64,000 nucleotides of DNA, from contig CAVQFQ010000010.1 of NCBI GenBank assembly GCA_963711835.1, forward strand, positions 167,301 to 231,300, in the 5' to 3' direction. A program made the translations under genes and the position numbers. The stretch comes from an uncultured delta proteobacterium. GTDB taxonomy: Bacteria > Desulfobacterota > RBG-13-43-22. Of the stretch, positions 17,198-43,223 are shown piece by piece (the stretch's first letter is position 1; each line of letters opens with the position of its first letter). Under the pieces are notes generated by a model. That model was not told the origin of the DNA and did no database searches. It saw only the letters and a list, made by a program, of their open reading frames with translations.

Positions 17198-17285
17198 TCT
17201 TTTGATGGACCATACAGGATCCGGATCTATCATCTCAGAAGCCAGTGCGCTTACTATCAAAGAAGAAACCAGGAGGAAAAGAAAA

Positions 17286-18237: not shown

Positions 18238-19817
<1,580 letters not shown>

Positions 19818-19823
19818 CCCTGG

Positions 19824-19905
19824 AGCAATCGGCTCTTGGCGGTCAGCGGTCAGTAAAAGCACAAGGCCTTTGGAAGTCCACAAGCTGACTGCTGGTCGCC
19901 GGCCG
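19824..19905. repeat. inverted heptamer-repeat hairpin after glnK
   Basis: GGCGGTCAGCGGTCAGT (19838-54) pairs with GCTGACTGCTGGTCGCC (19884-900) using G-U pairs. Confidence 0.6.
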
Positions 19906-20005
19906 TTTTGGAGCGGAGTTGTTGATTATGTCAAAGACGGCCCGCCAAGTCTTTTCCTGTTACCTGAAGCTTCCGGAAAAGAAATAATTCCAGGAAAAAA
20001 ATTTT

Positions 20006-20049
20006 TACATTTTTGTATAAAATTAATTTAAAATGATTGCATAAATGTA
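20006..20049. promoter_or_regulatory. paired putative enhancer (bEBP) sites
   Basis: TACATTTTTGTA (20006-17) and TGCATAAATGTA (20038-49). Confidence 0.6.
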
Positions 20050-20123
20050 ACTTGCTTTTTATTGGGGAAAGCCATTTTTTATAAACAGACTGATATTATT
20101 GATTAATTGATGTTCAAAATCAA

Positions 20124-20139
20124 TGGCATAACGATTGCA
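20124..20139 (+). promoter_or_regulatory. sigma54 -24/-12 promoter
   Basis: TGGCATAACGATTGCA upstream of glnB-glnD-glnA. Confidence 0.85.
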
Positions 20140-20173
20140 GTTTTAGAAAATGTTCGCCCTCTAACCCTTTTAA

Positions 20174-20575
<402 letters not shown>

Positions 20576-20753
20576 TAAATCCGAGTTACTGGGTGCTGGT
20601 TTCTGGATAGGTGATAAAAGCAAGCACTGATGCTGAAACCGGGATAACCATCACGATGTAATGCTGGTGGCCTAAAAATACGCATCCGTGGTTTCAACAG
20701 GTTTCCTTATCGAGCAGCCAGTATCTAGAAACCGAGATCAGACCAGACCAATA

Positions 20754-23348: not shown

Positions 23349-23365
23349 TTAAGGAGGAAAGACCA

Positions 23366-24778: not shown

Positions 24779-24784
24779 AAAGGT

Positions 24785-24815
24785 TCCATCCGGAAATCTG
24801 TGATTTCCGGATGGA
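24785..24815 (+). other. perfect 14-bp stem-loop between glnA and glnE (mRNA stabiliser or attenuator)
   Basis: TCCATCCGGAAATC-TGT-GATTTCCGGATGGA, with no U-tract. Confidence 0.6.
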
Positions 24816-24884
24816 GCGTTCAGCTGTCAGCGAAAAACGAACAGGCGAACCCTTAAATCCCGGACCCCTCGGATCCTATGGTTT

Positions 24885-27785
24885 ATGTCTCAAGAAGGTC
24901 ACCAACTTCTATCCAGAGTCAAGGCCTTTTCTCCCTACCTTACCCAGGTGATGCGTCGGCATCCCGCCCTCGTCCGGGATCTATTTGACCAGGACGGCTA
25001 CCGGGAGAAAAGGTCTCCTGCCCAGCTTTCTCAAAGATTAAAAGAACGGCTTGCCGGTGTTAGGGATTTCCAGGGCTTCTGTCTTCTGTTGCGCCATTTT
25101 AAACAGGAAGAGATCCTGAGGATCGCTATCCGGGATCTGGGCGGATTGGCTGGTCTCAAAGAAACTACCGGTGAACTTTCAGCCCTGGCCCAGGTCTGTT
25201 TGGCGAATTCGGTTTCCTTTTGTTCCCGGGACCAGGCCGGCTTCAAATCCGGCCCCCTGTTTTCCCGGAGCATAGAAGAAGGGCTGGTCATTCTGGGGCT
25301 GGGAAAGTTGGGCGGAGAAGAGCTGAACTTCAGTTCCGATATTGACCTGATCGTTCTTTTTCATCCGGCCGCCGCCTGGCCGGTCTCAGCCCTTGAACAG
25401 AAAGAGGTTGCCCAAATCCTGACCAAACGGGTTATCCAGGCTATGGGGGCCCAGATCGAAGGAGACCATGTCTTTCGGGTTGACCTTGGACTCCGGCCCG
25501 GCGGTAAGGATTCGGAATTGGTCATTTCCTTAGAGTCGGCCCTGGACTATTATCAGAACGAAGCCAGGACTTGGGAAAGGCTGGCCTTGATTAAAGCCCG
25601 TCCCCTTGCCGGGAACCCGGCTCTGGGGAATCTCTTTTTGAAAGAAGTCCAGCCCATTATTTACCGTAAGTTTGTCGATTATACGGTCCTGGCCGATATC
25701 CGCTCCATGAAACAAAAGATCCTGGCCGAAACGCAATCCCATTTGCTTAGAGGGGACGACATAAAGCTCGGTCCGGGAGGAATTCGGGAGATCGAATTTA
25801 TCATTCAGTCCCTGCAGATGATTTTTGGAGGCCGTCTGCCGGCCCTTCGGGAAAAAAATTCCCTGAAGGCCTTAATTAAATTACAGAAGGCCCAGATCCT
25901 TCCAAAAGAAGAATTCCAGCAGCTCCGAAAGGCGTATACCTTCCTGCGGACCCTGGAACACCGGTTGCAAATGGTGCATCAGCAGCAGACCCATAGCCTT
26001 CCACGGGACCCTCAAGAGTTGGAGTGTATAGCCAAAGAGATGCCCTTGAAGTGGCAACGGGGACTGCTGACGGCCAAAGAAATTACCGGGGAATTGGATC
26101 GGGTCCGAAAAAAGGTCAGGATAGCCTTTGATAATCTTCTCCTGGCTCAGAACAGCGTCTCTATGGAAAAGGTGGCCGCTTTAGTACACTCCCCTTTGGA
26201 ACCGGAAGAGCGGGAAAGGGAGTTGAAGGCCTTAGGTTTTCAAAAGGGTGGCCCTATTCAGGAAATAATCCATTCCTGGCGGGGGCGGCTGGCCTCTTCC
26301 AGCGCCAGGGAAAAAGTCTTTCTGACAAAATTATTTCCCCTTCTTTTAGGCTTTTCTTTACAAACCGTGAATCCGGACCAAAGCCTTCTATTGGCGGATC
26401 GATTTCTTCGCAGCGTCGGGGGCCGAACCGGCATCCTGGCCATGCTCCTGGAAAGGACCGCCCTGGCCAAGGAGATCATGGATCTTTTTGCCCGGAGCGC
26501 CATGTTAGGCCGCCTGTTCGTTCAAAATCCCGACATGATGGATCATCTGGTTCTTAAAAGAACGCTCGCCGGGCCTGCCCTGGAGGAACATCCTGCTTTA
26601 TCAGTAAAAATGAGGGAACGGGGGAAGGACTTGGAAGACCGTCTGTCCTGGTTGAGGCGGTGGAAAAGCGAGCAGTTTCTGGAAATCGCTTTGGAGGAAA
26701 TCTCGGGGAGAATTTCCGCTTCCGAAGCCTCGGAAAGGCTTTCCACCTTAGCCGATCACGTCCTGTCGGAAACAACCAGGTTGGCTGAAGAAACGTTGAA
26801 CCAGGAAGTCATTCACCCTATCTATCCCGATCATTCGGCTTCCCCGCCTCCTTCTCCTTTCTGCGTTTTGGGATTGGGAAAATTAGGAGGGCGGGAATTG
26901 GGGTATACCTCGGATCTCGATTTGATTTTTGTCTATTCCTTAAAAACGCCCTTTCTATCCGAGTCCAGAAAACCCCCTTCACCGGGGAGGGGCCGGGATG
27001 GGAAAAAATGGATTACCTACCATGAATACCTGGTCAAGTTAGCCCAGCGGCTTATTTCCTATCTCTCTTTGCCGTTGAAAGAAGGGGCCGGCTATGCGAT
27101 CGATACCCGGCTCCGGCCTTCGGGGAGTTTCGGACCCCTGATCGTTTCTTTGGATGCCTTTCGAGAGTATTACCGGGGGCAGGCCCAGAACTGGGAAAAA
27201 CAGGCCCTTCTAAAGGCCCGAATCATGGTCGGGTCGCCCAACCTCAGTCGTCAAGTTCAGGAGACCGTGGCCAGGATTCTTTATGAAACGCCGCCGCCCT
27301 CTCAGGTTCGGGAGGAAATGGCCCATGTTCGGTCCCGCATGGAAAAAGAACGTTCCGGGGAGGGGTCGGGCCGTTTCAATCCCAAGTTAGGATTCGGCGG
27401 GTTGACCGATATTGAATTTTTGGTCCAATTTCTTCAGTGGACCCATGGGCCGGCCTTTCCCGATTTGAGAAAAACAAATACCCTGCAGGCCTTAAAGTCC
27501 CTGAGCAACAACGGTCTGCTGTCCGATGAAACCCATTTGCAGTTGCAGGAAGCTTACCAATTTCTGACCACCCTGGATCATGGGCTTCAGCTTTTGTTTG
27601 ACCGGAAGGGAGATGCCCGCACCTACGACCCTGAGGAACTGAAGCAGTTGGTCGATCTGAATGTAATGGGCCTGGGAAATCCGACTCTTTTGTCCTGGGA
27701 TATGGTCTCTCATTATGAAAAAGTGCGCCGCAACGTCCGTTCCATTTTCAAGGCCGTTTTTTCCGGCCAGGCCCAGGCCGTTTAG
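24885..27785 (+). CDS. glnE: glutamine synthetase adenylyltransferase/adenylyl-removing enzyme
   Basis: Two GLGKLGG.EL..SD.DL nucleotidyltransferase domains, WER/WEK, KLG.GG. Confidence 0.95.
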   Translation: MSQEGHQLLSRVKAFSPYLTQVMRRHPALVRDLFDQDGYREKRSPAQLSQRLKERLAGVRDFQGFCLLLRHFKQEEILRIAIRDLGGLAGLKETTGELSALAQVCLANSVSFCSRDQAGFKSGPLFSRSIEEGLVILGLGKLGGEELNFSSDIDLIVLFHPAAAWPVSALEQKEVAQILTKRVIQAMGAQIEGDHVFRVDLGLRPGGKDSELVISLESALDYYQNEARTWERLALIKARPLAGNPALGNLFLKEVQPIIYRKFVDYTVLADIRSMKQKILAETQSHLLRGDDIKLGPGGIREIEFIIQSLQMIFGGRLPALREKNSLKALIKLQKAQILPKEEFQQLRKAYTFLRTLEHRLQMVHQQQTHSLPRDPQELECIAKEMPLKWQRGLLTAKEITGELDRVRKKVRIAFDNLLLAQNSVSMEKVAALVHSPLEPEERERELKALGFQKGGPIQEIIHSWRGRLASSSAREKVFLTKLFPLLLGFSLQTVNPDQSLLLADRFLRSVGGRTGILAMLLERTALAKEIMDLFARSAMLGRLFVQNPDMMDHLVLKRTLAGPALEEHPALSVKMRERGKDLEDRLSWLRRWKSEQFLEIALEEISGRISASEASERLSTLADHVLSETTRLAEETLNQEVIHPIYPDHSASPPPSPFCVLGLGKLGGRELGYTSDLDLIFVYSLKTPFLSESRKPPSPGRGRDGKKWITYHEYLVKLAQRLISYLSLPLKEGAGYAIDTRLRPSGSFGPLIVSLDAFREYYRGQAQNWEKQALLKARIMVGSPNLSRQVQETVARILYETPPPSQVREEMAHVRSRMEKERSGEGSGRFNPKLGFGGLTDIEFLVQFLQWTHGPAFPDLRKTNTLQALKSLSNNGLLSDETHLQLQEAYQFLTTLDHGLQLLFDRKGDARTYDPEELKQLVDLNVMGLGNPTLLSWDMVSHYEKVRRNVRSIFKAVFSGQAQAV

Positions 27786-27998
27786 CCGGGGGAAGGCTAG
27801 CCCCTTGTTCCCCCTGACCTTCGTACTCGGTCGCACTCGATCCTTCCTTCCCCCGCCTGTTTCTTATGGTTAGCCCTACCAGGGGCCTCCGAAAGGGACG
27901 GGCCAAACCCTATTAGTCTGAAAACGGATAGAACATTTGCCCCCGTTCCGAAAATGTGGTAGATAAAGACCTAATCACTTATGATATGAGGAGGGGCT

Positions 27999-29327
27999 AT
28001 GAATTGCCGAACTGCAGAAGATGTGCTTCGTCTGGTTAAAGAAAAAAATATTAGTTTTATCCAGTTTTGGTTTACCGATATTTTGGGATTGTTAAAGAGT
28101 TTTGCAGTCACTCCCTCCGAATTAGAGGAAGGCCTGACCGAGGGGATGGGGTTTGACGGATCTTCGATCGAGGGGTTTGCCAGGATCGAAGAATCCGATA
28201 TGATCGCCAAACCCGACCCGGCGACTTTCCAGTTGATTCCCTGGAGATCAGGGGAAAAACCGGTGGCCCGCCTGTTCTGCGATATCCTTCAGCCGGATGG
28301 GACCCCGTATCCGGGCGACCCCCGCTATGCCTTCAAAAGACTTCTGAGCAAGGCTCGGGAGAAGGGCTATACTTTTCTGGTAGGGCCGGAATTGGAATAT
28401 TTCTATTTTAAGGACCATGCCAACACCGAACCTCTGGATCTGGGGGGATATTTCGACTCCCGGCCCATGGATCTGGGAGGGGACCTGAGACGGGAGACCA
28501 TTTTTGCCCTCCAATCCATGGGAATCAGGGTGGAATACAGCCATCACGAGGTGGCCCCCAGCCAGCACGAGATCGATTTGCGATATGCCGAGGGATTGCA
28601 GATGGCCGATATCACCATGACCTATCGGGTGGTGGTAAAAGAGGTAGCCCGGGGCAAGGGGGCCTACGCCACCTTTATGCCCAAACCGATTTTCGGTCAA
28701 AACGGAAGCGGCATGCATACCCATCAATCCCTCTTCCTCGGGGACAAGAACGCCTTTTTTAATCCCGGGGATCCCTATCATCTGTCCGAAATCGCCAAAT
28801 GCTATATCGCCGGCTTAATGCGCCATGCCCGGGAGATGACGGCCATCAACAACCAATGGGTCAATTCCTATAAACGGCTGGTGCCGGGTTATGAAGCCCC
28901 GGTTTATGTCTCCTGGGCCAGGAGAAACCGATCGACCATGATCCGGGTTCCCATGTACAAACCGGGCAAGGAAAAGGCCACCCGGATTGAATTTCGTTCC
29001 CCCGATCCGGCCTGCAATCCCTATTTATGCTTTGCTGTGCAGTTGGCGGCCGGTCTGGCCGGTGTAGAAGGGAAGTACCCTCTGCCGGACCCTATAGAGG
29101 AAGATATTTTTGAAATGAGCCCCAGGAAACGAGAGCAGCGTGGAATTCAGTCCCTGCCGGGAAACCTTTATGAGGCCCTGGGGGAGGTCAAGAAAAGCAC
29201 CCTGGTCCGGGAGGCCCTGGGCGACCATATTTTCAACCAGTTCGTGGCGAACAAAGAGATTGAGTGGGACCGCTACCGTACCCATGTCAGCCGGTTTGAA
29301 ATTGAAAAATATCTGCCCATTTTATAG
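27999..29327 (+). CDS. second glutamine synthetase family protein (short GSI-alpha-like)
   Basis: FDGSSIEG, HHEVAPSQHE, NGSGMH, PGYEAP; 442 aa. Confidence 0.9.
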   Translation: MNCRTAEDVLRLVKEKNISFIQFWFTDILGLLKSFAVTPSELEEGLTEGMGFDGSSIEGFARIEESDMIAKPDPATFQLIPWRSGEKPVARLFCDILQPDGTPYPGDPRYAFKRLLSKAREKGYTFLVGPELEYFYFKDHANTEPLDLGGYFDSRPMDLGGDLRRETIFALQSMGIRVEYSHHEVAPSQHEIDLRYAEGLQMADITMTYRVVVKEVARGKGAYATFMPKPIFGQNGSGMHTHQSLFLGDKNAFFNPGDPYHLSEIAKCYIAGLMRHAREMTAINNQWVNSYKRLVPGYEAPVYVSWARRNRSTMIRVPMYKPGKEKATRIEFRSPDPACNPYLCFAVQLAAGLAGVEGKYPLPDPIEEDIFEMSPRKREQRGIQSLPGNLYEALGEVKKSTLVREALGDHIFNQFVANKEIEWDRYRTHVSRFEIEKYLPIL

Positions 29328-29397: not shown

Positions 29398-29622
29398 TTA
29401 TATCAAAGAGTTGGTCTCGTTGTGTAAAAAGGGGACAGATTTATTTTTTGAATTCCTTGGCCTTCCTTGCCCCCGAAGCTCTACCCGTTTTTCAATTTTC
29501 TGCTCAATCTCATCAATAAACCGTAAACTACCGGTCAACTGTCCCCGCTGGAGCGACTTTCGAATCAATTCCCATTCTCCCTCGGGGACTGTTCCCTTTA
29601 TCCAATCCGCATATCTTTCCAT
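29398..29622 (-). mobile_element. C-terminal fragment of a REP-associated/IS200-like tyrosine transposase
   Basis: IRKSLQRGQLTGS.RF..IE..RGQGRPR followed by NKSVPF (AAATAAATCTGTCCCC), recalled as a typical RAYT-like 3' end; no catalytic HUH part. Confidence 0.6.
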
Positions 29623-29644: not shown

Positions 29645-30568
29645 TCATTTCATCGGTCGTGAGGGAAATCCGGCCTGTTCAATAATTTCGGGGATCTTTT
29701 CCTCGTTGCCGATGGACATGATGTGGACCCCTTTCACGCCCTTTATCTGTCGGAGCGATTTCATCAGTTCAACACAGATACGTATGCCTTCGGACTGCTG
29801 CTTGTCTTCGGGCATTGACTTCAACCTGTCCATAATATTATCCGGGATATTAATTCCTGAAACCCGATCCCTCAGATATTCAGCCATTTTGAGGGACTTC
29901 AAGGCGGCCACACCGGCTAGAATCGGTACCTGATCAATCAATCCGGCTTCTTCCACCCTGGTCATCCATCTCTGGAAGGCTTCAGTATCAAAGACAGGCT
30001 GGGTTTGGATAAAGTCAGCGCCGGCCGCGACTTTATTTTGGAAACGGATAATATGGAGATCAAGATTTTTCATAAAGGGATTGGCAACGCCTCCGATAAA
30101 GAATTTCGGCTGCCCGGTTATTTTTTTTCCGTTTAACAGGACACCTTGATCCCGAATTCGCTTTACGGTTTCAATCCATTGGCTGGAGTCAAGATCAAAG
30201 ACCTTATTGGCCTCGGGATGGTCACCCTTGGAGGGATGATCGCCGGTCAGGCAGAGCACGTTTTGAATTCCCAGGGCAGCGGCCCCCAACAAGTCGCTCT
30301 GGAGGGCCAGGCGGTTTCGATCCCGCATGCTCTGTTCCAGAATTGGCTCCAGGCCGGAATCCAGTAAAAGCTTGGAAAAAACCAGGCTGGACATCCTTAC
30401 GTTTGAATTCGGGTTGTCATTGACATTGACGGCATCGACCTTGCCTTTTAGTCTATCGGCCATCTCTGATATTCGACCGACTTCGACCCCTCGCGGCGGA
30501 GTGAATTCACAGGTAATGGCAAACTGCCCCTGTGACAAGGCCTGTTGTAATCGGGTTTCTGCTATCAT
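29645..30568 (-). CDS. metF: methylenetetrahydrofolate reductase MetF subunit
   Basis: TCEFTPPRG, RDRNRLALQSDLLGA, LCLTGD, GADFIQTQ. Confidence 0.92.
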   Translation of the reverse strand: MIAETRLQQALSQGQFAITCEFTPPRGVEVGRISEMADRLKGKVDAVNVNDNPNSNVRMSSLVFSKLLLDSGLEPILEQSMRDRNRLALQSDLLGAAALGIQNVLCLTGDHPSKGDHPEANKVFDLDSSQWIETVKRIRDQGVLLNGKKITGQPKFFIGGVANPFMKNLDLHIIRFQNKVAAGADFIQTQPVFDTEAFQRWMTRVEEAGLIDQVPILAGVAALKSLKMAEYLRDRVSGINIPDNIMDRLKSMPEDKQQSEGIRICVELMKSLRQIKGVKGVHIMSIGNEEKIPEIIEQAGFPSRPMK

Positions 30569-31239
30569 AATGTCAGGTCCTCCCTGATTATTTTTCGGGG
30601 ACCTCCCGAAAGGCTGGTGGACCAGTCCTTAGCGCTGCGGATCGTTTTAAGAGACTCAATCGTGCCCAAAGTCTTCATCCGGACATAGATCTGTTCCCAA
30701 ATACACGGTCTGTCCTTATTAACCTCGCACATTCCGTCTTCCGATCCACCGCAGGGACCGTTAGAAAGGTTTTTGGCACAACGGGTGACCGGACACAATC
30801 CACCGAAATAATGAATGTTGCAATTTCCGCAGGCAGCGCAATATTCTTCCCAGATACCATGCTGCACGGTTCCACCCATAAAGCTGGTATTCAAACCGGG
30901 ATAGACAGGAAGGTCCTTAAAGGTCTCGGCAATATACTGAGGGCCGATGCTGCAGGCCAGGGATATAACGGCTTCATAATTGTTTTTATTCAGGGATTCC
31001 TCAAGCCAGGTAATAAATTCCGGCTCACATTGGCGATCGAGGGTCATCTCGTCGACCGTGATCGGATTACCCTGTTTCCGCCGGGCCAGCCTGAGGGCGG
31101 CGGACAGGATGGCCACCTCTTTTTTCCCACCGGCATTACAAACCGTAACACATCCTTTGCAGCCGACCATCAGTATCTTGTGATAAGGGGCTACCATGGC
31201 CAGAAGCTCCTGGACCGGTTTGCGTTCAGCAACAATCAT
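30565..31239 (-). CDS. metV: MTHFR Fe-S subunit MetV
   Basis: MIVAERKP, GCKGC..C, CAACGNC, CPVTRCAK.L.NGPCGG, C.W. Confidence 0.9.
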   Translation of the reverse strand: MIVAERKPVQELLAMVAPYHKILMVGCKGCVTVCNAGGKKEVAILSAALRLARRKQGNPITVDEMTLDRQCEPEFITWLEESLNKNNYEAVISLACSIGPQYIAETFKDLPVYPGLNTSFMGGTVQHGIWEEYCAACGNCNIHYFGGLCPVTRCAKNLSNGPCGGSEDGMCEVNKDRPCIWEQIYVRMKTLGTIESLKTIRSAKDWSTSLSGGPRKIIREDLTL

Positions 31240-31687
31240 GGTTCTCTCCTTTATTGGGTGTCTGCCGATTTTCCCTCGGCCGGCCGATACCAGGACCTAA
31301 CTCGCGTATCCTTTCGGTTACCATTCGGGCGACCTGGGCGAACTTGGGAGCATCCGAGGCGGCAATATTAAACATCTGTACCCGGTCCGGCTCGATTCCC
31401 ATCTCCTCCAACAGGCGACGGACATAGGCCGCCCGTTTTTTAGCTTTAAAGTTGCCGGTTTCGAAATGGCAGTCCCCTTCCATACAGCCGGCGATAAAGA
31501 CCCCATCGGCGCCTTTTTCCAGGGCCCGAATCAGATGAAGCGGGTCGACCCTTCCCGAACAGGGAACCAGGATGATCTTTACGTTAGCCGGATAGCTCAT
31601 CCGGATGGATCCAGCCAGGTCGGCCGCCGCATATGAGCAGTAATTGCAGCAAAAAGCTATAATTTGTGGTTCAAAGGGTTCAGTCAT
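31226..31687 (-). CDS. mvhD: MvhD/FlpD [2Fe-2S] subunit
   Basis: AFCCNYCSYAAADLAG, VPCSGRVD, GCMEGDCH. Confidence 0.92.
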   Translation of the reverse strand: MTEPFEPQIIAFCCNYCSYAAADLAGSIRMSYPANVKIILVPCSGRVDPLHLIRALEKGADGVFIAGCMEGDCHFETGNFKAKKRAAYVRRLLEEMGIEPDRVQMFNIAASDAPKFAQVARMVTERIRELGPGIGRPRENRQTPNKGENHDCC

Positions 31688-31719
31688 TTTTTACCATTCC
31701 CAAAAACACCGTTTTCCTC

Positions 31720-34700
31720 TCAGTCGAACAAGCCCTGCACCTTGGCTTCGATCTGTTCATCCAGATGATGATGGACTGAGATAGCCTGGGCCGGGCATTC
31801 CGAAGCGCACATCCCGCATCCCCGGCATCGGGCCGGATCGATCTGAGACACCCCATATTCATTAATATAGGGCACGGAATACGGACAGGTTCTGACGCAG
31901 GTCATGCAGGCCGCGCACAACTCTGGATCCACCTGGGAGGAAGGCCCCACCTGAATCACATCTTTAGACAGGATGCACAGTGCCCGGCCGGCCGCCCCCT
32001 TGGCCTGGACCATCACCTCTTCCGGGAATTTCGGTCCATGCCCGTCCCCGCAAAGAAACATGCCGTCGGTGGTGAAATCCAAGGGACGGAGCTTGACATG
32101 GGCCTCGAGAAAGTACCCCCGGTCATCCCTGGGAAGCTTATAAACATTCGCAATTCGGGTGGACCCGGGATGGGGTTTCATGGCCGCGCTCAGGACAATT
32201 ACGATCCGGCGATAAGACGATCTCGCGCCGGATGGCCGGCTCAATAAAGCGTATGGAAAGCCTATGGTCCTTTTCAAAAACCTCAGGGGGTTGGGCCAAG
32301 TCATAGCGGATGAACAGGACCCCTTGCTGCCTGGCCTTTTTATAATACTGCTCTTTTAATCCGAAGGTCCGAACGTCCCGGTACAGGACAATAATTTCTA
32401 TATTTGGATTGATCTCTTTAAGTCTCAGGGCGTTGGCCACGGCCTGACTGCAACAGACTCGACTGCAATAAGGATTGTCCTGGTTTCGCGAACCGACACA
32501 CTGGATCATGATGACCTGGTTTAATGACTCGATCTTGTCTCTGTCCTCCTTGATCGCCTTTTCCAGTTCGCTTTGAATCATGACCCCCTGATCCTGCCCG
32601 TATAGATACTCCTCCGGTTGATAGGGTTCGGCGCCGGTAGCAATAATGGCTGTCCCATGGCGCAGGGAAACCGTTTCGCCGGTCTGGTTTTTAATGGTCG
32701 AGACAAACCCGCCCACGTGTCCGTCGATCTTTTCGATCTCGCATCCCAGGTGTACAGAAATTTTAGGATGACTTTTTACTTGCTGGATCAGCCCGGGGAT
32801 ATATTCGGCCGGATCGAATCCTTCCAGGGTCGGAAGACTGACCTGATGCCGGCCGCCCAAAGAATCGCTTTGTTCGATAAGATGCGTTTTGAATCCCTGA
32901 TCCGCAATTGTAACCGCGGCAGTCAAACCCGCCAATCCTCCGCCGACAACCAGAGCCACCGGAAGGACCGGAACCTGTTGGGTCATAATGGGTTCCTGAT
33001 TGGTTAACCGCTTAACGGACATACGAACCAGATCTTTGGCCTTTTGGGTGGCTATTTCGGATTGTTCGGAATGGACCCAGGAACATTGGTTCCTGATGTT
33101 AGCCATCTCCAGGAGGTAGGGATTTAGGCCCGCATCCCGCAGGGTGTCCATAAAGAGCGTTTCATGCGTCTTAGGCGAACAGGAGGCTACCACCACCCGG
33201 TTGAGATCATGCTCAAGTATCAACTCCTTCATCCGGACCTTGGAGTCGGTGGAACAGGCAAACAAAAAGACTTCCGAAAAGACCACGTTGGGTAACTTCC
33301 TGGCATACTCGGCCAGACCTTGCACATCCACGACCCCGGCAATATTGGTTCCGCAGCAGCAAACAAAGACGCCGATCTTTGGGCCGATCCCGAAAAGAGA
33401 GCGTTCAGGCGGTAATACCGGTTTGACAATCTCGTAACCCCGGACCCCGGCTATGGGCAAGGTCGCCTCGGCGGTTACGGCGCTGGCCTGGGCCACCGTC
33501 TCGGGAATATCCTTGGGCCCTTCAAATCCCCCGCAAACGTAAACCCCGTCCCGGGAAGTCCGCAAGGGATTTCCGACCGGTGTCTTGACATACCCGTATT
33601 GATCGAGTTCAACGCCCAACCGGCCGGCCAGTTGGACGGCCTCGGCGGAGGGCGATAAACCCACCGCCAGCACGACCAGGTCAAAGACCTCCTCGATCTT
33701 TTCACCTGTTTCCGGATCTTGGTAAGTCAGCTCCAGATCATGGGTAACCGGGTTTTCAACCACCCGGCTGATCATGGACCGGATATAACGGACATGGCTT
33801 TGTGATTCGGCCCGTTCGCAATAGGAATCAAATCCCTTTCCCTGGGCCCTCAGGTCCAGGAAAAATATGGTCGGTTCCATCTCCGGATGATGGCTCTTGG
33901 CGATCACCGCCTCTTTGGTAGCGGCCATGCAACAGACCGAGGAACAGAACTCCCGACCCTCCCGGATGGACTCCCTGGACCCCACACATTGGATCCAGGC
34001 CACTTTCTGGGGGACTTTTTTATCTGAAACCCTCAAGATTTCACCGCCTGATGGTCCGGTGGCCGAAAGGCATCGTTCGAATTCCATGGTCGTAATCACA
34101 TTGGGATATCGGCCGTAGCCGTACTCCGGGGCCAGGGTGGCGTCGAAAAGGTCGAGCCCGGAGGACAATATGACCGACCCGACTTCCAGGGTTATCTCTT
34201 CAGGTTTCTGATTGAAATCGATGGCGTTGTTTTTGCAGAACTTCTCGCAGGCCCGGCACCTTCCCTTCTGAAAATAGATACAGTGATCCCGGTCGATCTC
34301 ATAAACCAGAGGCACCGCCTGAGGATAAAGCAGGAAGGCTGCCTTTCGCTTGTTCAACCCCTGATTGAATTCATCTTCCACCTTGGCCGGGCACTTCTGG
34401 GCGCAGATACCGCAACCCACACATTTTTCCTCATCCACATACCGGGGATGCTTTTTGACAACGGCCTTAAACCGGCCCGGTTCACCTTCCAGATTGATCA
34501 GCTCGGCCTTGGTTATGATTTTTATATTCGGATGACTGGCAACCCCGATCAGCTTGGGGGATATCATGCACATGGAGCAGTCATTGGTGGGAAAGGTCTT
34601 GTCCAGTTGGCTCATCCGCCCACCGATGGAGCCTTTTCTTTCTATCAGATAAACCAGGTAGCCCGATTCGGCCAGATCCAGAGAGGCCTGTATCCCGGCG

Positions 34701-34759
34701 ATTCCGCCTCCGACAATCATCACCGCGCCGATAGGGTTTATAGGTGTTTCAGTAGACAT
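31720..34759 (-). CDS. hdrA: large HdrA-like flavo-Fe-S protein with two FAD-binding modules; one frameshift at ~32201
   Basis: GGGIAG, LDKTFPTNDCSMC, WIQCVGSR..CSSVCC, ANIRNQCSWVH, second GGGLAG; continues in ORF 31720-32304 (EAHVKLRPLDF, ferredoxin). Confidence 0.9.
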
Positions 34760-34790
34760 ATCTTTTAACCAAAAAAATTTAAAATTTTCT

Positions 34791-34857
34791 GTTATTCGTT
34801 ACTGGTTACTCGTTTCTCGTTTTTACAAGCAACCCGCCACAAGTAACGGGCAACGAG
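34791..34857. repeat. inverted degenerate heptamer repeats
   Basis: GTTATTC GTTACTG GTTACTC GTTTCTC ... AAGCAAC CCGCCAC AAGTAAC GGGCAAC. Confidence 0.65.
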
Positions 34858-34871
34858 ATGCTGGTATGAAT

Positions 34872-35696
34872 CTAACCAGCAATCAGTCCTTTCTCTTTCA
34901 GATAGGGGATGGGATTCACCCTATGCCGTTTAAGCCCGCGAGTGATATCCTTTAATTGCAGGGCCAGCCCGATTAATTCGGTAAAATAGAAGATCGGCAG
35001 ACGGTATTCCTTTTCAAAAATTCCGGCAATTTCTTCCTGATACAGATCCAGATTAGCCCTGGCACATCTGGCAGGAGACTATAATACAATCGGCCCCGGC
35101 CTCCAGGGCCCGGTCATAAGAGCTTTTCTCACCAGAGTGTGGATAATTTCAGGCTTGGATATGGAAAAGCTGGCGCCGCAGCAATCGGTCTTAAAAGACC
35201 AGGGTTTTACGTCAATTCCGAGTGTTTCGGCTATTTGATCCATTTCCATGGGATTCTCATAGTTTTTACTCCCGGTGATTTTGGGCGGCCGGTTGGCCAT
35301 ACAGCCGTAGTAACAGACCGCCGATAGGCCGGTCAGTGGAGCCTTTACCGCCGATCTGATTTTTTCGAGCATGTCCGGCCGGGCCATAAAAGAGGCCATA
35401 TCATGGATAGGAACGGCTGATCCCGTCTTCTCTTTGGCCCGTATAAGCCGATTATAACATAAGGGGCAGGGGACCAGCAGGTCATGTCCCATACGTTCTG
35501 CCTCAGGCAAATTGCGGGCGGGAAGATCAATCGCCAGTTTTCCATTCAAACTGTGAGCCGATGTGGCGCCACAGCAGGTCCAGTTCTTGGGCTCCTGCAG
35601 GTGGATGTCCAAAGCCCGGCAGACAGCCTTGATCGATTCATCATAATCCCGGGCCGATGATTCCAGGGAACAACCCGGATAGTAGGTTACTTTCAT
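34872..35696 (-). CDS. hdrB: heterodisulfide reductase subunit B-like (CCG domains); three +1 indels near the 3' end
   Basis: YYPGCS, WTCCG, PCPLC, YYGC, DCCG; after correction the tail reads SCQMCQANLD..LPIFYFTELIGLA. Confidence 0.88.
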
Positions 35697-35856
35697 TGAT
35701 CAACCTTCTTTTTCATAGTAAGGTCTAGTGTAAGCCTGCTTCATACCCAGTCACAATATTCTAGCCCGCCAGAGGAGAGGGGAATCTGTTTTGTCTCTTG
35801 AGCGGACAGACCCCAAGAGGGGACATGAAAGGACCTCACTTGGACCATTCCAAATT

Positions 35857-36440
35857 TCAGATATCCTTAAATAGTCCCCGGACCTCTTTCCTGGTATTCC
35901 AGCGTGGGAAGAGAGAAAGGCGTCCGCGTTTTAACATACTCAGGCCCAGTCCGGCATTTTTAAGAAGGCCTGAAAAATCAATTCGACCTTTTATTAAGTC
36001 GGACCAGGAAGATTTTATCTGGTAAACGCCCATGAGAAGCGTTTCATTGATCCGGCCAAACATTTTAATATTGTCCAGGAAGACCTTATGGAACCTGGCC
36101 ACGGCCTCTTGAGATGGTTTCCTTTCCCTCTTCAGGACCTCCTGTTTGAGATCATCCATCAATTTCGGGATTTCGATTTCATTTGGACACCTGGTAAAGC
36201 AGGTTTCGCAGGAAGAACAGACCCAGATCGTCTTGGATTGAAGGACCTCTTCCGTCAATCCCAGTTGAAGCATCCGGATTAATTGATGGGGCAGAATAAT
36301 CCATGGCAAAGGTCACCGGGCATCCATTGGAGCACTTGCCGCACTGGTAGCAGGCGAACAAATCCACCTTCCAGTCCAGACGCGCCCTGTTGAGCAAACG
36401 TCGTATCGACCTTTAATATCGGATCCAGGTTATTATTCAT
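35857..36440 (-). CDS. hdrC: heterodisulfide reductase subunit C-like; two +1 indels
   Basis: CYQCGKCSNGCP..AMD and IWVCSSCETCFTRCP fall in adjacent frames. Confidence 0.88.
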
Positions 36441-36453
36441 GTTCTTTCTTTCC

Positions 36454-39079
36454 TTATTCCTCCACCGAAGCCTTAGCCAGATCCTTGACTTTTTGAGGAA
36501 TAATTTTCCAATAGACCTCGCTGGGGGTCTTTCGCACCCCGTCTACGGTCAACAGATCTTCCTCCACGGAGATACCGAACAGGTTTTCGTTCTCTCTTAA
36601 AAAGGGAAGGATCAGCCGCCAGTCGTCATTGGTTAAATCATCAAAGGCCCCCCCGTTTAATTGCTCCTCAACGAGCTTCCGCTGCGGGTCCCTGACATAG
36701 ATAGCCCCTCCGGAAGCCAGGGAAAAAAGATTGGATCCGGGATAGGGTGTGGCCTGCGGACGCGGTCGGCCTTCATCGTCAAATTCAAGCCCGTTTAGAA
36801 TGATAAATCCGCCGCCGTTGTGCGGGTTTCCGGCCATGAATGATTCAGCCAAATAATCCAGGGCCGTACCATTGATGACCACCTTGGGACGCCCCACCGC
36901 GTTGATCAAGGGACGGCCGGCGGCATTACCCATGACATAGATCTCTCCGCCTTTGGCGCCGTACAAAAAGGTCTGGCCCACATCTCCGTATATAACCAGT
37001 TTTCCGGATTTCAAAATCTGGCCGAGCTGATCCTGGGCATTTCCATGGACTTCAATGTTCAGGCCATCAATACCCGACCCCAGGTAATCCCCGGAACTTC
37101 CATAGACATCGATCTTGACGTTATTCGTTCCCGGACCCAATCCGCATCCCAGAAAACGTTGGCCTCGATATCCATAGCAGATAAATTTTTTCCAGCCCAG
37201 CTCGTAGGCCCGCCAGACCAATCTCGCGTCGCAGTCATCCCCTTCAGGCGGAAATCCGTTGGCGTTCAGGATCAGGGTGGTCTGTTTTCCCACAGGTTCG
37301 ATTAGTTTATCCCTTGACTCCCAGGTAATCAGGCGATAACGGCTGCCGTTGTTGGAACCCATCGGTTCAGCCTGGCCGAAGATCTCTTTTAAGGTGCTGC
37401 GGGTTATATTCAGGATAGCGTTGCGTTTTAGTTTACCGGTTGAAAAACGCCGGTCATTGATCAGGGTAAGCGCCTGGATAGCCGTTTGCCTATATTCGTC
37501 ATTGTTCCGGGATTCTTCAGCTGATCCGTTGGCATAACCAGCGGAACCCGTCATATCCGGCCTCTTGCATCTGATCTTTTAGTAATTTAAAAAGACCGAA
37601 AGCACTCCCCTGTTCCAGTTGTTCAGTAATGGATAAAGCCAGCGATTCGCTTTTATCCGGCCTGCCGATAGACAGGCGCATATCACCGGCCTCTCTTCCC
37701 TGGGGAGTCTTGACTTCCCGGCCGAATTTGTCCGTGCAGACCAGCCTCTTTTGGCCCGGGCGATCCGGATCGTCGGAGATGGTGAAGATAAAGGCGCCAC
37801 CGTCGGTATGGCTTCCCCCTCTGGCGTTCCAGTATTTATCGGCCACCGGGCAGATTCGTGGATCTTCCGCAGCCAAGCTGGCCAGGGTGGCATCAATGGC
37901 CTGTTTCTCAGAACAGATCAGACCCACCTGGACTTCGCCGTCATGAAAGGCAAAGACCTGAGGCCGGAGCATGGCGGTATCGGTAATACCGATCAGTTGA
38001 AACAGGCGATGATAATAATCGTTTCTGGCGATAATAAAAAACCAGGGTCCGTCAGGGGAACCGTTAATATGTATGGACTGGAGCAGGCCGTATATCTTTT
38101 GTTTTTCCTCGGGAAGCTGATCAAAATCCATTTCAGTGGTCGGGGCCAGGGCCTCGATGATATATTCCAGCGGATATCCATAGACCCGATTCAGGAGGTC
38201 GAACATAAGAACGGCGACTTCCGTATCCGTTAAAAAATGCGGGAAGATATTTTTCTGTTTCAGATACTCGGAAACGGAGTAATAGTTGGCAAAATCACCG
38301 TTATGCACCAGGGCCTCATCCAGTCCCATGAAGGGATGGGCCCCGGCCGGGTGCCAAACCCGGCCCTTGGTGGGATACCGTTGATGGGCGATCCAGATAT
38401 GGGCCCGGAAATCCTCAAGCCGGTAGTACTCCGCCACCTGTTCGGCATAACCCACGATCTTCAGAATCATCATGTTTCTGCCCTGGGAGAGGACAAAGGC
38501 CTTCTTGTCGCCCTGGGCGTCATAAAACTTCCGGTTCAGTTTGATGGTGTTCTGCCAGATATATTCATCTTCTATTTTTCTTGGATCGGTCCCTTTAAAA
38601 CGGTTTTGATCGGCGAATTCGGAAAGGATATCCGGCTTTACCCGGACAAAGTAACGCCAGACATCAGGGGGTTTGATTTCCAGTCCCTCGACTTGACGAT
38701 AATCATCCAGGGTGGGAATAGCGCTGTCCATCCTGGATATCCATGAACGGGTGTAAGACAATGCTTTTCCACATCCCCCCGGGCTTCGGGTTCCAACAGG
38801 GCCACCTGAATCATGTAACAGTCATCCAGCACGGACTGGGAAACACCCAGGTCGGCCGCGACTAATCCCGCGGCCGCGATTCCGCCTCCCTTTCCATTTC
38901 CCCGGTTGTGCATCAGCCGCGAAGGTTCAAAAATGTGCTTGCCCCCCACCGGGACTGAGCAGGCAAATCCGGTGACGCCGCATCCTCCCTCTTCGCATTC
39001 CTTTCGAATATCCGGGAGGGCGTTAGGATAAAGCCTTTTTCTTGATTCAATGAACTTTATCGATAAATGAATTTTTCAT
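36454..39079 (-). CDS. glutamate synthase amidotransferase + GXGXG subunit (GltB1-GltB3 fusion); four +1 indels
   Basis: Propeptide then EEGG-CGV (Ntn Cys), MHNRGNGKGGG, HQRYPT, VHNGD, TDTE; C-terminal GXGXG repeats (GNAQDQLG, GDVGQTF.YGAKGG, GNAAGR). Confidence 0.85.
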
Positions 39080-39083
39080 GATC

Positions 39084-40619
39084 TTATGTGACGGCTTCGA
39101 TAGACCTCAGATAATCTTCATAATCCAGATGTTTGAGGCAGTCGGTTCTGCCTACCAACTCCCGGATATCCGCATATCCAGTCGGTAAAGGATTTCAATC
39201 AACTGGGACCGCCAGGCATGAAAGACATTGATCAGTCTCTGGGTGGCCCAGTCCACCTCTATGGTTTTGTTTAATTCCGGATCAGTAGAGGCTATTCCCC
39301 GGGCGCAACCCCGGCCGCTCTCGCAATTGGAACAGCGGATGCATTCAACGGCCACCATTTCCACGGTCCCGACCACCACCCCGTCTGCGCCCAGGGCTAT
39401 GGCCTTGGCCACATCATAGGCCGTACGAATACCACCGCTGGCAATGACGGTTATTTTGTCGCGAATGCCTTCCTCTTTTAAAAAATTATGGACCTTGACG
39501 ATGGCATACTCGATGGGCATGGCAATATTTTTCTTGGCGATGTCCGGGGCCGCGCCGGTCCCGCCATAGCTGCCGTCCAGATGGATAATATGGGCCCCGG
39601 CATAGTAACTCCCCACAGCCACCATATCCACATCCGTGGGTGTGGAGACCTTTACCGACACCAGCCCTTTGGGATTGACCTCCTTTATCCAGTCGATATG
39701 TTTTTTGTGATCCTCGACCGAATAGACGCTGTGAAACGGAAAAGGAGAAAACAAAGGGTTTCCCGGAACGGCCTCCCGCATCTTGGCCACTTCAGGGGTT
39801 ACCTTATCTCCCAGCAAATGACCGCCCAGACCGGGTTTGGCACCCTGGGCATACTTGAATTCAACCATTCTCACCCGCTTGATGGTCTCTTCCCTCACCC
39901 CGAACAATCCCGTGGCCACCTGGGTAATGACATGATCGTCATAGGGATAGAGTTCCTGGGGATAACCGCCCTCTCCGGTGCAGGTAAAGGAATTCCAGGC
40001 CTGCCAGGCCCTGGCCCGGGCGATAATAACCTTTAAGGGCAATGGACCCGAAGGACATGCCCCCGCCATAGACCGGAAGATCGATCAGGATCTTTTCTCG
40101 ATTATCCCCTGATCGGTTGAGTGGAATGACTGTTGAGAATTCATTCGGGTCAAGTTCCCGGCCGGGCGCCTCCTTCTGGAACTTGAAATCAAGGCGATCA
40201 AATCCGCCATTGGAATCTCCGATTTTGTACTCCATATCACCGGGCGGTATGCGGCCGGTTTCGGCCATATACCAGGTACTGATCAGGAGATCAGGTGTCC
40301 AGCGCCTGTCCCCAATGACCGTTGAGGCGGGATTGATATCCAGGGTCAGGGCCTTTTCCGGGCAGGCCTCGATACACTTGTTGCAGTTAAATCCGACACA
40401 GAGATAGTCTTTGGGCATGGCCATCTTGATCTTTCCCTTCTGGTAGACACCATAGGGACAGATTTCCAGGCATTGACCACAGGCAATACAGGCGCTGCTC
40501 CGGCGAATCCTGAATTTACCGATGGCGTTGCGATAGCGGCTCGGGGTTATCTTAACCTCGGGCATCTCTATTTTATAATCCGGTTGGGCGATCATTTCTG
40601 TTTCTATCGGTTCGGTCAC
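39084..40619 (-). CDS. glutamate synthase FMN-binding subunit with N-terminal 2x[4Fe-4S]; two indels
   Basis: CIACGQCLEICP, GGGMSFGS, TGEGG, QVATGLFGV, KYAQGAKPGLGGHL, VSVK, DGSYGGTGAAP, SGGIRT. Confidence 0.88.
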
Positions 40620-42025
40620 ACTTCATTTTTTCTCCGGCCAAAAAGCCGGCCAAAGGTGTCGGCCTCAAGATCCTCGAAAAACATGGCCCGGCCGACCTCT
40701 CCCCTCAAACGCCTGACCTCTCTGATTCCCATGGCTCCCAGCACCTCTAAAAGCTGGTTTCTCCAGGCGGCCATCAAATTCATGATGCGGGTCTTTCCCC
40801 AGTCCGGGTGGATATTTTCTATCTGAACCGGACAGGACAGTCCTTCTTGGCAGCGGAGACACATACGGCATTCCAATGCCAGAAGTAGAGGAATATCGAT
40901 TGAAACCGCGTCAGCCCCGCAGAGGATGGCCTTGGGAACATGCTCGGCCATGGCAATACCGCCGCCCGCTATGAGGGTTAGGCTGTTGCGGATGCTTTTA
41001 TCGACAAGATGATTATGTACTTTTCGGACGTAATCCGTCACAAAACCGATCACGTTATCCGGTCGGGATTGGCTGTGAACATCACCGTTTCTATCCGCCA
41101 CCAGGTGGATGATATCCGCTCCCTCAGCAGCCAGGAACCCAGCCCGCTCGTGACTGGCCTCATCCAGCCTTGTTTTTATCATGACCAGTGTTTCAGGATA
41201 GTGCTTCTTGATCTCCCTTAACGCAGCCGCTGATTCCGCCGTGTCACGGAATTCAACGATAGGGGCGGATTCGATCCAGGTCCGGGCCGATTCCAAACGA
41301 TCCGGAGACAGCAGGGGAATAATATTCGCCGTATAACTTTTAAAGTGTTGGTCCAGGAGTTCCACAGGGATTTCGATGACCGTGCTTAGGGTCGCGGCCG
41401 CCATGACCATGGCTGTAAAAACTTCGCGGCTGAGACTTCCGAAAGGAAGTTCCCCGAAGATAATCGGAATTGGGAGGTCGATATTCTTGGGCGCATCCAG
41501 GATGGGTTCCCCTGTTTCCGTAAAGGGAAGGGAAAACAGTTTCCGGCCGAGACTCACCAGGGTGTTGATATACTCACGACCATGTATGCCGTCGCGTGTG
41601 GGTCTGACAATCTCCGACATGTCCGTCCACATCTGGTCAAAACCCGGTCCGCAAAAAGGTCCTGAATATCCCGCGCCCGAGACGGGTATGGCCCCGGTTT
41701 CAGCCTGATACCAATTTTTGTATAGAATATCCGCTGTCCAATAGGCGTCACCCATTTTTTCATATTCCGGATTAAGCGTCTTGGTAATAACCCGGCCCGG
41801 ACATTCCTGAACGCAGCGAAGACAGTTCTTACAAATTTTATCGATGGTATCGGTTAATAGGGTTGGATCGAATGTCCGCTGATTATAAGCATCGACCACA
41901 CATTTACGTTTAACGCACTTAAAGCAGCGTAGACATCCGGCTTCCCAATCCAGGACCGTGCTCTTGGCGGTCGGTGTGAATCGAGGGGGCGTCGGTGTTA
42001 TCGCAATATGATATTTTTTAGGCAT
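40616..42025 (-). CDS. glutamate synthase FMN-domain paralog with N-terminal Fe-S domain and a degenerate active site
   Basis: CLRCFKC..C, CKNCLRCVQECP, GFDQMWTD, AGGGIA, CRMCLRC..CP, LGAMG; lacks the TGEGG and QGAKPG motifs. Confidence 0.8.
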   Translation of the reverse strand: MPKKYHIAITPTPPRFTPTAKSTVLDWEAGCLRCFKCVKRKCVVDAYNQRTFDPTLLTDTIDKICKNCLRCVQECPGRVITKTLNPEYEKMGDAYWTADILYKNWYQAETGAIPVSGAGYSGPFCGPGFDQMWTDMSEIVRPTRDGIHGREYINTLVSLGRKLFSLPFTETGEPILDAPKNIDLPIPIIFGELPFGSLSREVFTAMVMAAATLSTVIEIPVELLDQHFKSYTANIIPLLSPDRLESARTWIESAPIVEFRDTAESAAALREIKKHYPETLVMIKTRLDEASHERAGFLAAEGADIIHLVADRNGDVHSQSRPDNVIGFVTDYVRKVHNHLVDKSIRNSLTLIAGGGIAMAEHVPKAILCGADAVSIDIPLLLALECRMCLRCQEGLSCPVQIENIHPDWGKTRIMNLMAAWRNQLLEVLGAMGIREVRRLRGEVGRAMFFEDLEADTFGRLFGRRKNEV

Positions 42026-42030
42026 CTTCT

Positions 42031-42432
42031 TTACGATACCTTACCCAATGTTCGGATAAGTTCAGTCATATAACGGGCCACATGGTTAAAGTCTTTAAAC
42101 TCAGAGGTCCCCAATTGAACCATGGTGAGACGATCCGTTTCGATATTGATCTCCATTAAAAGCTTCTTGGTATGATTTATCGTTCTTTGAGCTCGTAAAT
42201 TTCCATCGAGAAGCCGGCAGGTATTTTCTTTGCATCCCAGGACAAAAATCCCGTCCATACCGGATTCAAAGGCCTTGATGATGCTTAGCGTTTCCACTTT
42301 GCTGCTGCAGGGGACGGATAGAATTTTAATCTCCGGTTCAAAGGCGTGCCATCCCTTTTCTGCCAACACCGGGTCTGATTCGATCGCGTTTTTACAGCAA
42401 AAACCTACGACTCTGATCGGAGCTTCCGTCAT
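42031..42432 (-). CDS. second MvhD/FlpD-like subunit
   Basis: GFCC, VPCSSKV, AFESGMDGIFVLGC..C..GN. Confidence 0.8.
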   Translation of the reverse strand: MTEAPIRVVGFCCKNAIESDPVLAEKGWHAFEPEIKILSVPCSSKVETLSIIKAFESGMDGIFVLGCKENTCRLLDGNLRAQRTINHTKKLLMEINIETDRLTMVQLGTSEFKDFNHVARYMTELIRTLGKVS

Positions 42433-42491
42433 ATTTATCCTGATTTATATTTCAGAATTACTAAATCTAATTTTGTTTTATTAGTAAAAAT

Positions 42492-42586
42492 AAAAAAGGC
42501 GCCTATCGAAATACTCATAGACGCCTTTGTCTTTATTCCTACTTAAAATTTAAGCATTATAGGCTAAAGACACAACCTTGTGTCTT
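42492..42586 (-). promoter_or_regulatory. ANTAR-type twin-hairpin leader overlapping an intrinsic terminator
   Basis: Minus strand: AAGACAC-AAGGTT-GTGTCTT and AGAC-AAAGGC-GTCT (hexaloops with A1/G4); the second overlaps terminator AAAGGCGTCTAT-loop-ATAGGCGCCTTT-TTT. Confidence 0.75.
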
Positions 42587-42624
42587 AAAATAATTTTGAA
42601 AAGAGCTTGGTCTTAAGTAGAAAA

Positions 42625-42653
42625 ATTATACTGAAAGGAAAAGAAACAGTCAA
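42625..42653 (-). promoter_or_regulatory. sigma70 promoter for the mvhD-glt-hdr-met operon
   Basis: TTGACT-17 bp-TATAAT on the minus strand. Confidence 0.8.
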
Positions 42654-42849
42654 GAAAAAACTAGCTGTCATTTCGAATTGAAACGTGCATACCTAAAAAA
42701 AGCCATAACCTGTGGAAAACGGAGGTTTCAGGGGATGGGCCAAATCCATAACTCATTCACCGACGATCAGGGTTAAAGAAACCATGCAACGGTATTTCTA
42801 TGGATAATAAGTCTTCGATTGACCTTTGAAAACGATATCGGGGACCGTA

Positions 42850-43223
42850 GATCCCCACAACGGGGGAGTTTTGTTGTCCTCAACGGCCTGACCGTCGACA
42901 CCCAGGGCAATATCGTTCCCCAGGAAACGCCCTACCCGGGATCCAATCTCTTTTCCCTGGCTTCGGGCGGGGCCATTTTTATCCGGGATCCGCAGCAGCA
43001 GATTGTCCCGGAACAGCTCAACGGCGGGGAGTTGCTGTCTTTTTCCGAGCCGGATTGGGAACTGATCCGCCCTTACCTTGAAGAAAACGAGCGTCTGTTC
43101 GGTATCTCCATCGAGGACCACCTCCTGACCGTGGATGGCCGGAAACATCGGCCGGCTGAGGTGTATCGCACGGTCCGGCCGGCCAAACAAACTATTCTGA
43201 CCGGCCGGGAGGAGTGGGAATAA
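42850..43223 (+). pseudogene. 3' stump of a second glutamate synthase GltB1-3 gene
   Basis: DPHNGG/SFVVLNG..TPYPGSNLFSLASGGAIFIRDP..EQLNGG..ENERLFGISIEDHLLTVDG closely parallels the C-terminus at 36454-36830; similarity begins abruptly. Confidence 0.85.

Follow-up and report, generated by a model that had tools for sequence, protein, structure and literature searches.

How does a glutamate synthase obtain its electrons when no GltD is encoded beside it? The question is raised by a ten-gene cluster of an uncultured delta proteobacterium (NCBI GenBank assembly GCA_963711835.1; GTDB lineage Bacteria; Desulfobacterota; RBG-13-43-22), which lies in a window of 64,000 nucleotides (contig CAVQFQ010000010.1, positions 167,301 to 231,300); positions given below are those of the window unless a contig or locus is named. 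The genes mvhD2, gltB2', gltB2, gltB1/3, hdrC, hdrB, hdrA, mvhD, metV and metF follow each other in this order, all on the minus strand (Table 1). An earlier reading of the DNA by a model (hereafter the original prediction) had described this one-strand order with mostly tight junctions, and the coordinates bear it out: seven of the nine gene junctions are overlaps or gaps of 32 bp or less, the exceptions being hdrC-hdrB (160 bp) and hdrB-hdrA (~111 bp). It was likewise correct that neither gltD nor a free ferredoxin gene occurs inside the cluster. Genome-wide, 12 GltD-like matches were found, none of which reached the TIGR01317 cut-off in this assembly, which is 89% complete, and queries with GltB2', GltB2 and GltB1 matched this locus alone. 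The answer that we favor, with slightly more confidence than doubt, is that the GltD-less split glutamate synthase would be fed through MvhD2 seated on GltB2', with MetV(F)/HdrA-MvhD upstream.

Glutamate Synthase Core and the Subunit GltB2'

The amidotransferase cysteine and the HQRY/Arg and HNG motifs are all present in the window GltB1/3, as are QGAKPGxGG, DGxxGGTGA, GGxR and the cysteine cluster in the window GltB2. HQRYPT and HNG were found in all 141 GltB1/3 sequences scored, and QGAKPGxGG and DGxxGGTGA in all 167 scored sequences of GltB2; in relatives, gltB1/3 is a single open reading frame (ORF) of 873 aa. By these sequence tests, which it passes, the cluster would encode a glutamine-dependent split glutamate synthase without GltD.

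GltB2' is only 27-29% identical to GltB2. The substrate and flavin motifs, i.e., QGAKPGxGG, DGxxGGTGA and the arginine of GGxR, are missing from it, and 16 of 16 aligned GltB2' sequences have no catalytic motifs. Retained are the N-terminal motifs for two [4Fe-4S] clusters, a C-terminal CxxCxxC and an invariant segment (residues 129-153). The predicted fold is a confident barrel (predicted local distance difference test, pLDDT, 88.5), for which Foldseek returned flavin mononucleotide (FMN) barrels such as glycolate and lactate oxidases at a template modeling score of ~0.4 and nothing specific; the best solved matches to the GltB2' profile were glutamate synthases (E ~1e-11). GltB2' is likely a pseudo-enzyme subunit that would act as the socket for MvhD2. 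It was found in 105 of the 401 genomes of the phylum, the source genome included, and also in Chloroflexota, Nitrospirota, Fibrobacterota and other phyla, and 7,439 of the 8,000 proteins scored matched it at E ≤1e-60. Fusion of GltB2' to GltB2 is frequent. In genome G031, one fusion protein of 2,531 aa combines a diverged GltB2' and a flavin adenine dinucleotide (FAD) oxidase with the remaining glt parts.

Predicted Docking of MvhD2

All 146 glt-adjacent MvhDs keep the cysteine ligands (one row is gapped at the first), and the Tyr19/Pro33 signature of HdrA-linked MvhD is missing from every one of them. The original prediction had cast the second MvhD as an adaptor, a role that we grade as likely: the modeled MvhD2-GltB2' complex scored 0.72 versus 0.00 for the best of three controls, and mvhD precedes gltB2' in relatives. 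The runs agreed in at least 96% of contacts with a partner pLDDT of at least 84. Of 157 solved complexes, 116 attained the mark set for this score, as did 2 of 215 mismatched pairs, a calibration that is only roughly valid for alignments made in this analysis. In the model, MvhD2 contacts the N-terminal ferredoxin domain of GltB2' and residues 389-397 of its C-terminal cluster motif. That motif is present in 143 of 146 non-oxidase rows versus 1 of 29 rows in which an FAD oxidase is encoded, where the rows include repeat genomes and the FAD-oxidase rows form one clade, so that they count as one evolutionary event. MvhD2 is thus predicted, on the strength of the model, to dock on GltB2'.

Among 80 GTDB loci, mvhD was found upstream of gltB2' in 50 and a gene for FAD oxidase in 21; none had both, and nine were cut short. 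The protein that replaces MvhD before gltB2' (FAD_binding_4/FAD-oxidase/4Fe-4S, ~615 aa) is encoded at L036:2115-3965, L039:2106-9701 and 29 similar loci; it carries the motif YGxGxWN, and the atlas returned automatic domain names only. We take YGxGxWN to stand where 2-hydroxyacid dehydrogenases have EHG.

Input Modules at Related Loci

To place the cluster among its relatives, 105 loci in 104 other genomes of the phylum were surveyed. Their input modules were MvhD-MetV-MetF (47 loci), MvhD alone (25), Hdr-linked (15), FAD oxidase (8) and MvhD-MetV (7), with two loci truncated and one without a module; among the 61 loci with enough flanking sequence on either side, 10 were Hdr-linked. The adjacency of glt and hdr-met genes therefore recurs elsewhere, as the original prediction required, whereas HdrABC as a conserved partner did not hold up, since 87 of the 105 loci carry another module and no same-strand Hdr gene within the stretch examined. 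The broader claim that electron-transfer genes stand in for GltD gains support from the MvhD-type modules at these loci and from the MvhD2 model.

The same ten-gene order occurs in relatives G016 and G017, and its gltB2-to-hdrA part in G015. Hdr-linked loci, found in several families and in four gene orders, have two MvhDs wherever the contig is long enough, and the Hdr-linked state needs six changes on the GltB2' tree. Relatives also have metF and metV placed in among mvhD2 and the glt genes, with several different arrangements. A metagenome scan with the GltB2' of a sister clade yielded 80 loci, 37 of them evaluable, and Hdr was present in 35 of the 37, usually in the order mvhD2-metF-gltB2'-gltB2-gltB1/3-hdrC-hdrB-hdrA-mvhD. 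Because these loci keep Hdr, the Hdr-glt link is conserved rather than due to chance. Some lineages thus conserve the link to Hdr, but the universal partner is MvhD and not Hdr. FastTree trees of MvhD, MetF and MetV had weak deep branches and long-branch warnings, and no order of events is claimed. MetV in trans (38 of 38) and acetyl-CoA synthase (64 of 76, the 76 being drawn from 98 listed genomes) did not discriminate between models.

Probable Replacement of a Native Operon

Most members of the family carry mvhD-metV-metF-gltB2'-gltB2-gltB1/3 after glnA and on its strand. In the window, what comes after glnA is the Hdr form in inverted orientation, and beyond it lies a 3' relic of gltB1/3, which is 73-78% identical to the native GltB1/3 copies and 60% identical to the resident copy. 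Both operons are present in G016, and the GltB2' of the Hdr form groups with family f20. The Hdr form likely replaced the native Hdr-less operon in place, to judge from these arrangements and identities, which argues that the two do the same job.

HdrA, MetV, MetF and the Direction of Electron Flow

The available text of PMC8097209 gives -240 mV for the FMN of characterized glutamate synthases (-270 mV with 2-oxoglutarate) and -280 mV for their [3Fe-4S] cluster (-190 mV with 2-oxoglutarate), and that of PMC8760232 gives -200 mV for methylene-tetrahydrofolate (methylene-THF). Because the FMN and [3Fe-4S] potentials lie above that of NADH, glutamate synthase is a high-potential sink and not a low-potential branch. 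Calculated from assumed free energies, as are the two energies below, glutamate synthesis overall falls at -61 to -92 mV. The original prediction had proposed that HdrA bifurcates electrons to methylene-THF at high potential and to the glutamate synthase clusters at low potential. One bifurcation signature is kept in HdrA, the window MetF is intact and the additional [4Fe-4S] clusters may have low potentials; however, both proposed acceptors lie downhill and no uphill step is left, which makes this scheme highly improbable.

The same sink could serve as the downhill branch of another bifurcation, in which HdrA splits electrons of NAD(P)H between glutamate, via MvhD-MetV(F)-MvhD2, and ferredoxin, uphill. 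NADH bifurcation to ferredoxin coupled in this way would yield -9 to -25 kJ per turnover. By the signature criteria in the available text of PMC9430772, module 1 of the window HdrA has the inserted ferredoxin domain and the equivalents of E356/K409; module 2 lacks the lysine, and the whole HdrA has only two GxGxxG motifs. The HdrA of the sister clade is Moorella-like (~1490 aa) with a GltD-like insert, and both lysines are found in 20 of 22 long HdrAs. The window HdrA (~1010 aa), however, does not carry the GltD-type insert for NAD(P)H that marks the Moorella form, neither ferredoxin nor NAD(P)+ was co-reduced by the Sporomusa ovata complex as far as the available text of PMC9430772 reports, and in most relatives the same core works with no Hdr. 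We consider NAD(P)H bifurcation unlikely. The wider proposal, in which this would be a bifurcating glutamate synthase that makes reduced ferredoxin and the Hdr-less relatives would run the wire on methyl-THF as a fourth donor class, is also unlikely, though slightly less so; if it were true, energy would be recovered from ammonium assimilation.

Whether methyl-THF could be the donor was also raised by the original prediction. Glutamate synthesis driven by methyl-THF oxidation is thermodynamically allowed (-21 to -27 kJ), and that part stands. As a general donor, methyl-THF fails, because G058 and G094 (Hdr-linked, 99-100% complete) have no acetyl-CoA synthase and a degenerate operon MetF, alongside a second MetF. 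Both folate-site residues of MetF were found in 73 of 74 Hdr-less operons, in 5 of 13 Hdr-linked ones, the window copy with its Glu and Asp included, and in none of 73 in the sister clade. The residues are numbered as E28/D120 of the Escherichia coli enzyme, whose roles we assume to apply here. This is the pattern that would arise if only the Hdr-less operons had to turn over folate, and we infer that methyl-THF may be the donor without Hdr and that MetF may be a relay or scaffold with Hdr. In the sister clade (L218-L297), LSGYHQ replaces LxGDHQ in 73 of 73 MetFs scored, and metF still lies beside gltB2'; from this sequence change, a non-folate or relay MetF is possible there.

The six genes hdrC-hdrB-hdrA-mvhD-metV-metF stand in the order of type IV methylene-THF reductase (MTHFR). 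The window MetV is 59% identical to the other HdrA-linked MetV of the genome versus ~49% to Hdr-less glt-linked MetVs. Elsewhere in the source genome (contigs C21, C17 and C4), HdrA is encoded in seven or more additional clusters and MetV in four additional copies, and C21 also carries a long HdrA-MvhD-MetVF set. The MetV identities, the two longer gene gaps, the intact window MetF and the 25 loci with MvhD alone speak for an alternative in which MetV and HdrA would not supply electrons to glutamate synthesis. The mixed gene orders of relatives, the sister-clade MetF that stays beside gltB2' without its folate Asp, the other MetVF sets of this genome and the replaced mvhD-metV-metF-glt operon speak against it, and we consider it unlikely.

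A last alternative, also from the original prediction, is an N-methylglutamate synthase route for methylamine. It has in its favor the adjacent folate genes and MgsABC, which we take to be homologs of the GltB domains. The adjacent glutamine synthetases, however, pass the type I and not the type III cut-off, the glutaminase motifs are intact, and neither a type III glutamine synthetase (GmaS) above cut-off nor a SoxB-like match was found in the 89%-complete genome; of all the readings considered, this is the least probable.

Integrity of This Copy

Relative to G015, G016 and G017, 12 single-base indels interrupt gltB2, gltB1/3, hdrC, hdrB and hdrA, while the long genes that flank the cluster are open frames. 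A decaying pseudo-operon would leave such a record, but the broken genes have as high an excess of synonymous over non-synonymous codon differences (47:10, 66:37, 77:32 and 139:42) as the intact ones (113:51 and 70:54). In 7 of 11 insertions tested, alternative single-base readings yield the identical peptide, as when two strain alleles merge, and at nine indel sites the additional base is missing from short-read contigs, which come from relatives and not from the same strain. Given this purifying selection, the same-peptide readings and the relatives' contigs, the indels are likely assembly errors, and decay of the operon is very unlikely.

Promoter and Leader RNA

A single promoter had been proposed for the cluster. 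A sigma70-like site is indeed present at its head, the best of 15 sites in the region; shuffling gives 13.1 such sites, and we infer, rather than observe, co-transcription of all ten genes. In the leader, two A1/G4 hexaloop hairpins and a terminator that overlaps the second are found, as in ANTAR targets described in the available text of PMC3369931, which also has ANTAR regulons consist mostly of nitrogen genes. The hairpins are conserved in G003, G016 and G017, one GAF-like/ANTAR protein is encoded in the genome (C16:114191-114883), and Rfam gave no match to the leader at gathering level. The GAF-like/ANTAR gene is followed (G000:C16:114191-116729) by a gene for a 530-aa protein without ferredoxin domains, which by its sequence may be a distant FMN glutamate-synthase-like protein; genes of ~550 aa similar to it lie near glnA in several loci.

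A Proposed Electron Wire

Under the reading that we favor, electrons would enter at HdrA-MvhD, whose reductant could be ferredoxin in its reduced form, a dithiol acting at HdrBC, or NAD(P)H; alternatively, methyl-THF would be oxidized at MetF. From either entry they would pass by MetV and MvhD2 to the clusters of GltB2' and on to the clusters and FMN of GltB2, where 2-iminoglutarate would be reduced, its ammonia coming from glutamine. Glutamate synthesis would be the downhill, high-potential sink, and the cluster, likely induced under nitrogen control through ANTAR antitermination, would have the function of the Hdr-less mvhD-metV-metF-glt operon formerly at the locus.

Several points weigh against this reading. 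The docking score may reflect the likeness of the pair to the solved contact between MvhD and the HdrA ferredoxin domain. At the cofactor level, the step from methyl-THF (-200 mV) to FMN (-240/-270 mV) is uphill, and the window HdrA has no GltD-type insert that would point to its electron source. The window MetF is intact, so that the argument from loss of the Asp covers relatives and not this copy. MetV or MetF is missing beside 32 of the 105 loci; MetV is encoded elsewhere in 30 of 30 such genomes checked, but also in 8 of 8 FAD-oxidase genomes checked, which does not discriminate. This copy of the operon carries the 12 indels, for which the comparison contigs come from relatives only. With regard to control, the linker between the hairpins is ~37 nt versus 5-12 nt in eut, and the ANTAR motif was found to precede just 21 of the 165 loci (~4.6 in shuffles).

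Gene Neighborhood

As predicted, glnA, glnE and amtB adjoin the cluster, on the opposite strand, together with glnD and a second glnA. They belong to a nitrogen island (17202-29327) of amtB, a 113-aa ORF, glnD, glnA, glnE and the second glnA; the 113-aa ORF is a putative P-II gene. A sigma54-type pattern has nine matches in the window versus 3.3 expected, three of them in the island (17182, 18128 and 20124), and the same scan gave none upstream of the ten-gene cluster. After metF, bordering the replaced stretch, lies a 74-aa ORF (29398-29622) with no family match, whose sequence is reminiscent of a tyrosine transposase terminus. The plasmid search gave no match.

Table 1. Features of the glt-hdr-met cluster and its surroundings.
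Feature	Position	Strand	Remarks
Sigma70-like promoter (TTGACT-17-TATAAT)	42625..42653	-	11/12 consensus match; similar hexamers there in aligned relatives
Leader, two AxxG-hexaloop hairpins, second overlapping intrinsic terminator	42487..42584	-	ANTAR-like attenuator; z -4.87
MvhD2	42031..42432	-	[2Fe-2S] adaptor; retains four Cys but not the HdrA-type signature
GltB2'	40616..42025	-	GltB2 paralog without catalytic motifs; Cys cluster motifs kept
GltB2	39084..40619	-	Ferredoxin domain and FMN synthase barrel; catalytic motifs present; 2 indels
GltB1/3	36454..39079	-	N-terminal nucleophile (Ntn) amidotransferase (GGCGV, HQRYPT, HNGD) fused to GXGXG domain; 4 indels
HdrC	35857..36440	-	2 indels
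HdrB	about 34871..35696	-	CCG domains; 3 indels
HdrA	31720..34759	-	Two thioredoxin-reductase-like modules; ~1010 aa; 1 net indel
MvhD	31226..31687	-	HdrA-associated type
MetV	30565..31239	-	13 conserved Cys
MetF	29645..30568	-	Folate-site Glu, Asp, Gln kept
3' relic of the gltB1/3 gene native to the family	42819..43223	+	Marks in-place replacement
Type I glutamine synthetase (glnA)	27999..29327	+	Precedes native glt operon in relatives
Further HdrA clusters on G000:C21	45354-50838, 62963-69616, 107338-116986, 297625-304979		

Comparison with Known Systems

No published description of a glutamate synthase-MvhD/MetVF/Hdr arrangement was found in the literature searched, subscription papers lying outside its scope. 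Added here are the module counts, the modeled MvhD2-GltB2' contact with the matching loss of the cluster motif, the MetF Asp pattern, the ANTAR-like leader and the probable in-place replacement. Together they offer a testable electron wire for GltD-less glutamate synthases, in a phylum of which about a quarter of the sampled genomes carry GltB2'; MvhD would be the plug, here used away from Hdr complexes, and its socket would be a subunit that is likely a pseudo-enzyme. They also suggest that many metV, metF and hdr genes counted in bins as markers of the Wood-Ljungdahl pathway or of bifurcation serve nitrogen assimilation.

The amidotransferase, FMN barrel, GXGXG domain and catalytic motifs are shared with GltBD (Azospirillum; 1ea0, 2vdc, 6s6s) and ferredoxin-dependent glutamate synthase (Synechocystis; 1llw). 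In contrast to these, the enzyme here consists of three proteins, has no GltD, and adds a GltB2' with clusters of its own, a four-Cys cluster motif in the FMN domain and an MvhD adaptor; GltD together with a single large GltB, by which NADPH-dependent GltBD is recognized, is not what the cluster encodes.

Archaeal-type split glutamate synthase consists of GltB1, GltB2 and GltB3. Its examples in our survey (L044-L048) likewise have a ferredoxin-fused GltB2, a separate glutaminase part and no GltD. Their partners vary, being an NADH oxidoreductase and ferredoxin at L044 and L045 and HdrB-like and HdrC-like genes at L047, L048 and L050, where GltB2' is absent, and F420-linked versions are mentioned in the available text of PMC9012536. 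The cluster differs from them in the fusion of GltB1 to GltB3, the added GltB2' and the MvhD with its MetVF/Hdr partner.

With methanogen MvhAGD-HdrABC (5odc), the cluster shares an HdrA module 1 that aligns at E 1e-130 with E356/K409 kept, and MvhD as a docking adaptor. Unlike that complex, it has no hydrogenase. To our knowledge, coenzymes M and B are not to be expected in this bacterium.

The six-gene half matches, in content and order, type IV MTHFR HdrCBA-MvhD-MetVF of Moorella thermoacetica and S. ovata as given in the available text of PMC9430772 and PMC8760232, and the window HdrA resembles that of S. ovata in its two modules, one Glu/Lys flavin and lack of a GltD insert (PMC9430772). 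It keeps, however, the inserted ferredoxin domain, which the C-terminal module of acetogen HdrA does not have according to the same available text. Unlike in type IV MTHFR, these genes are joined here to glutamate synthase genes, a second MvhD and an ANTAR-like leader, and the source genome carries separate HdrA-MvhD-MetVF sets.

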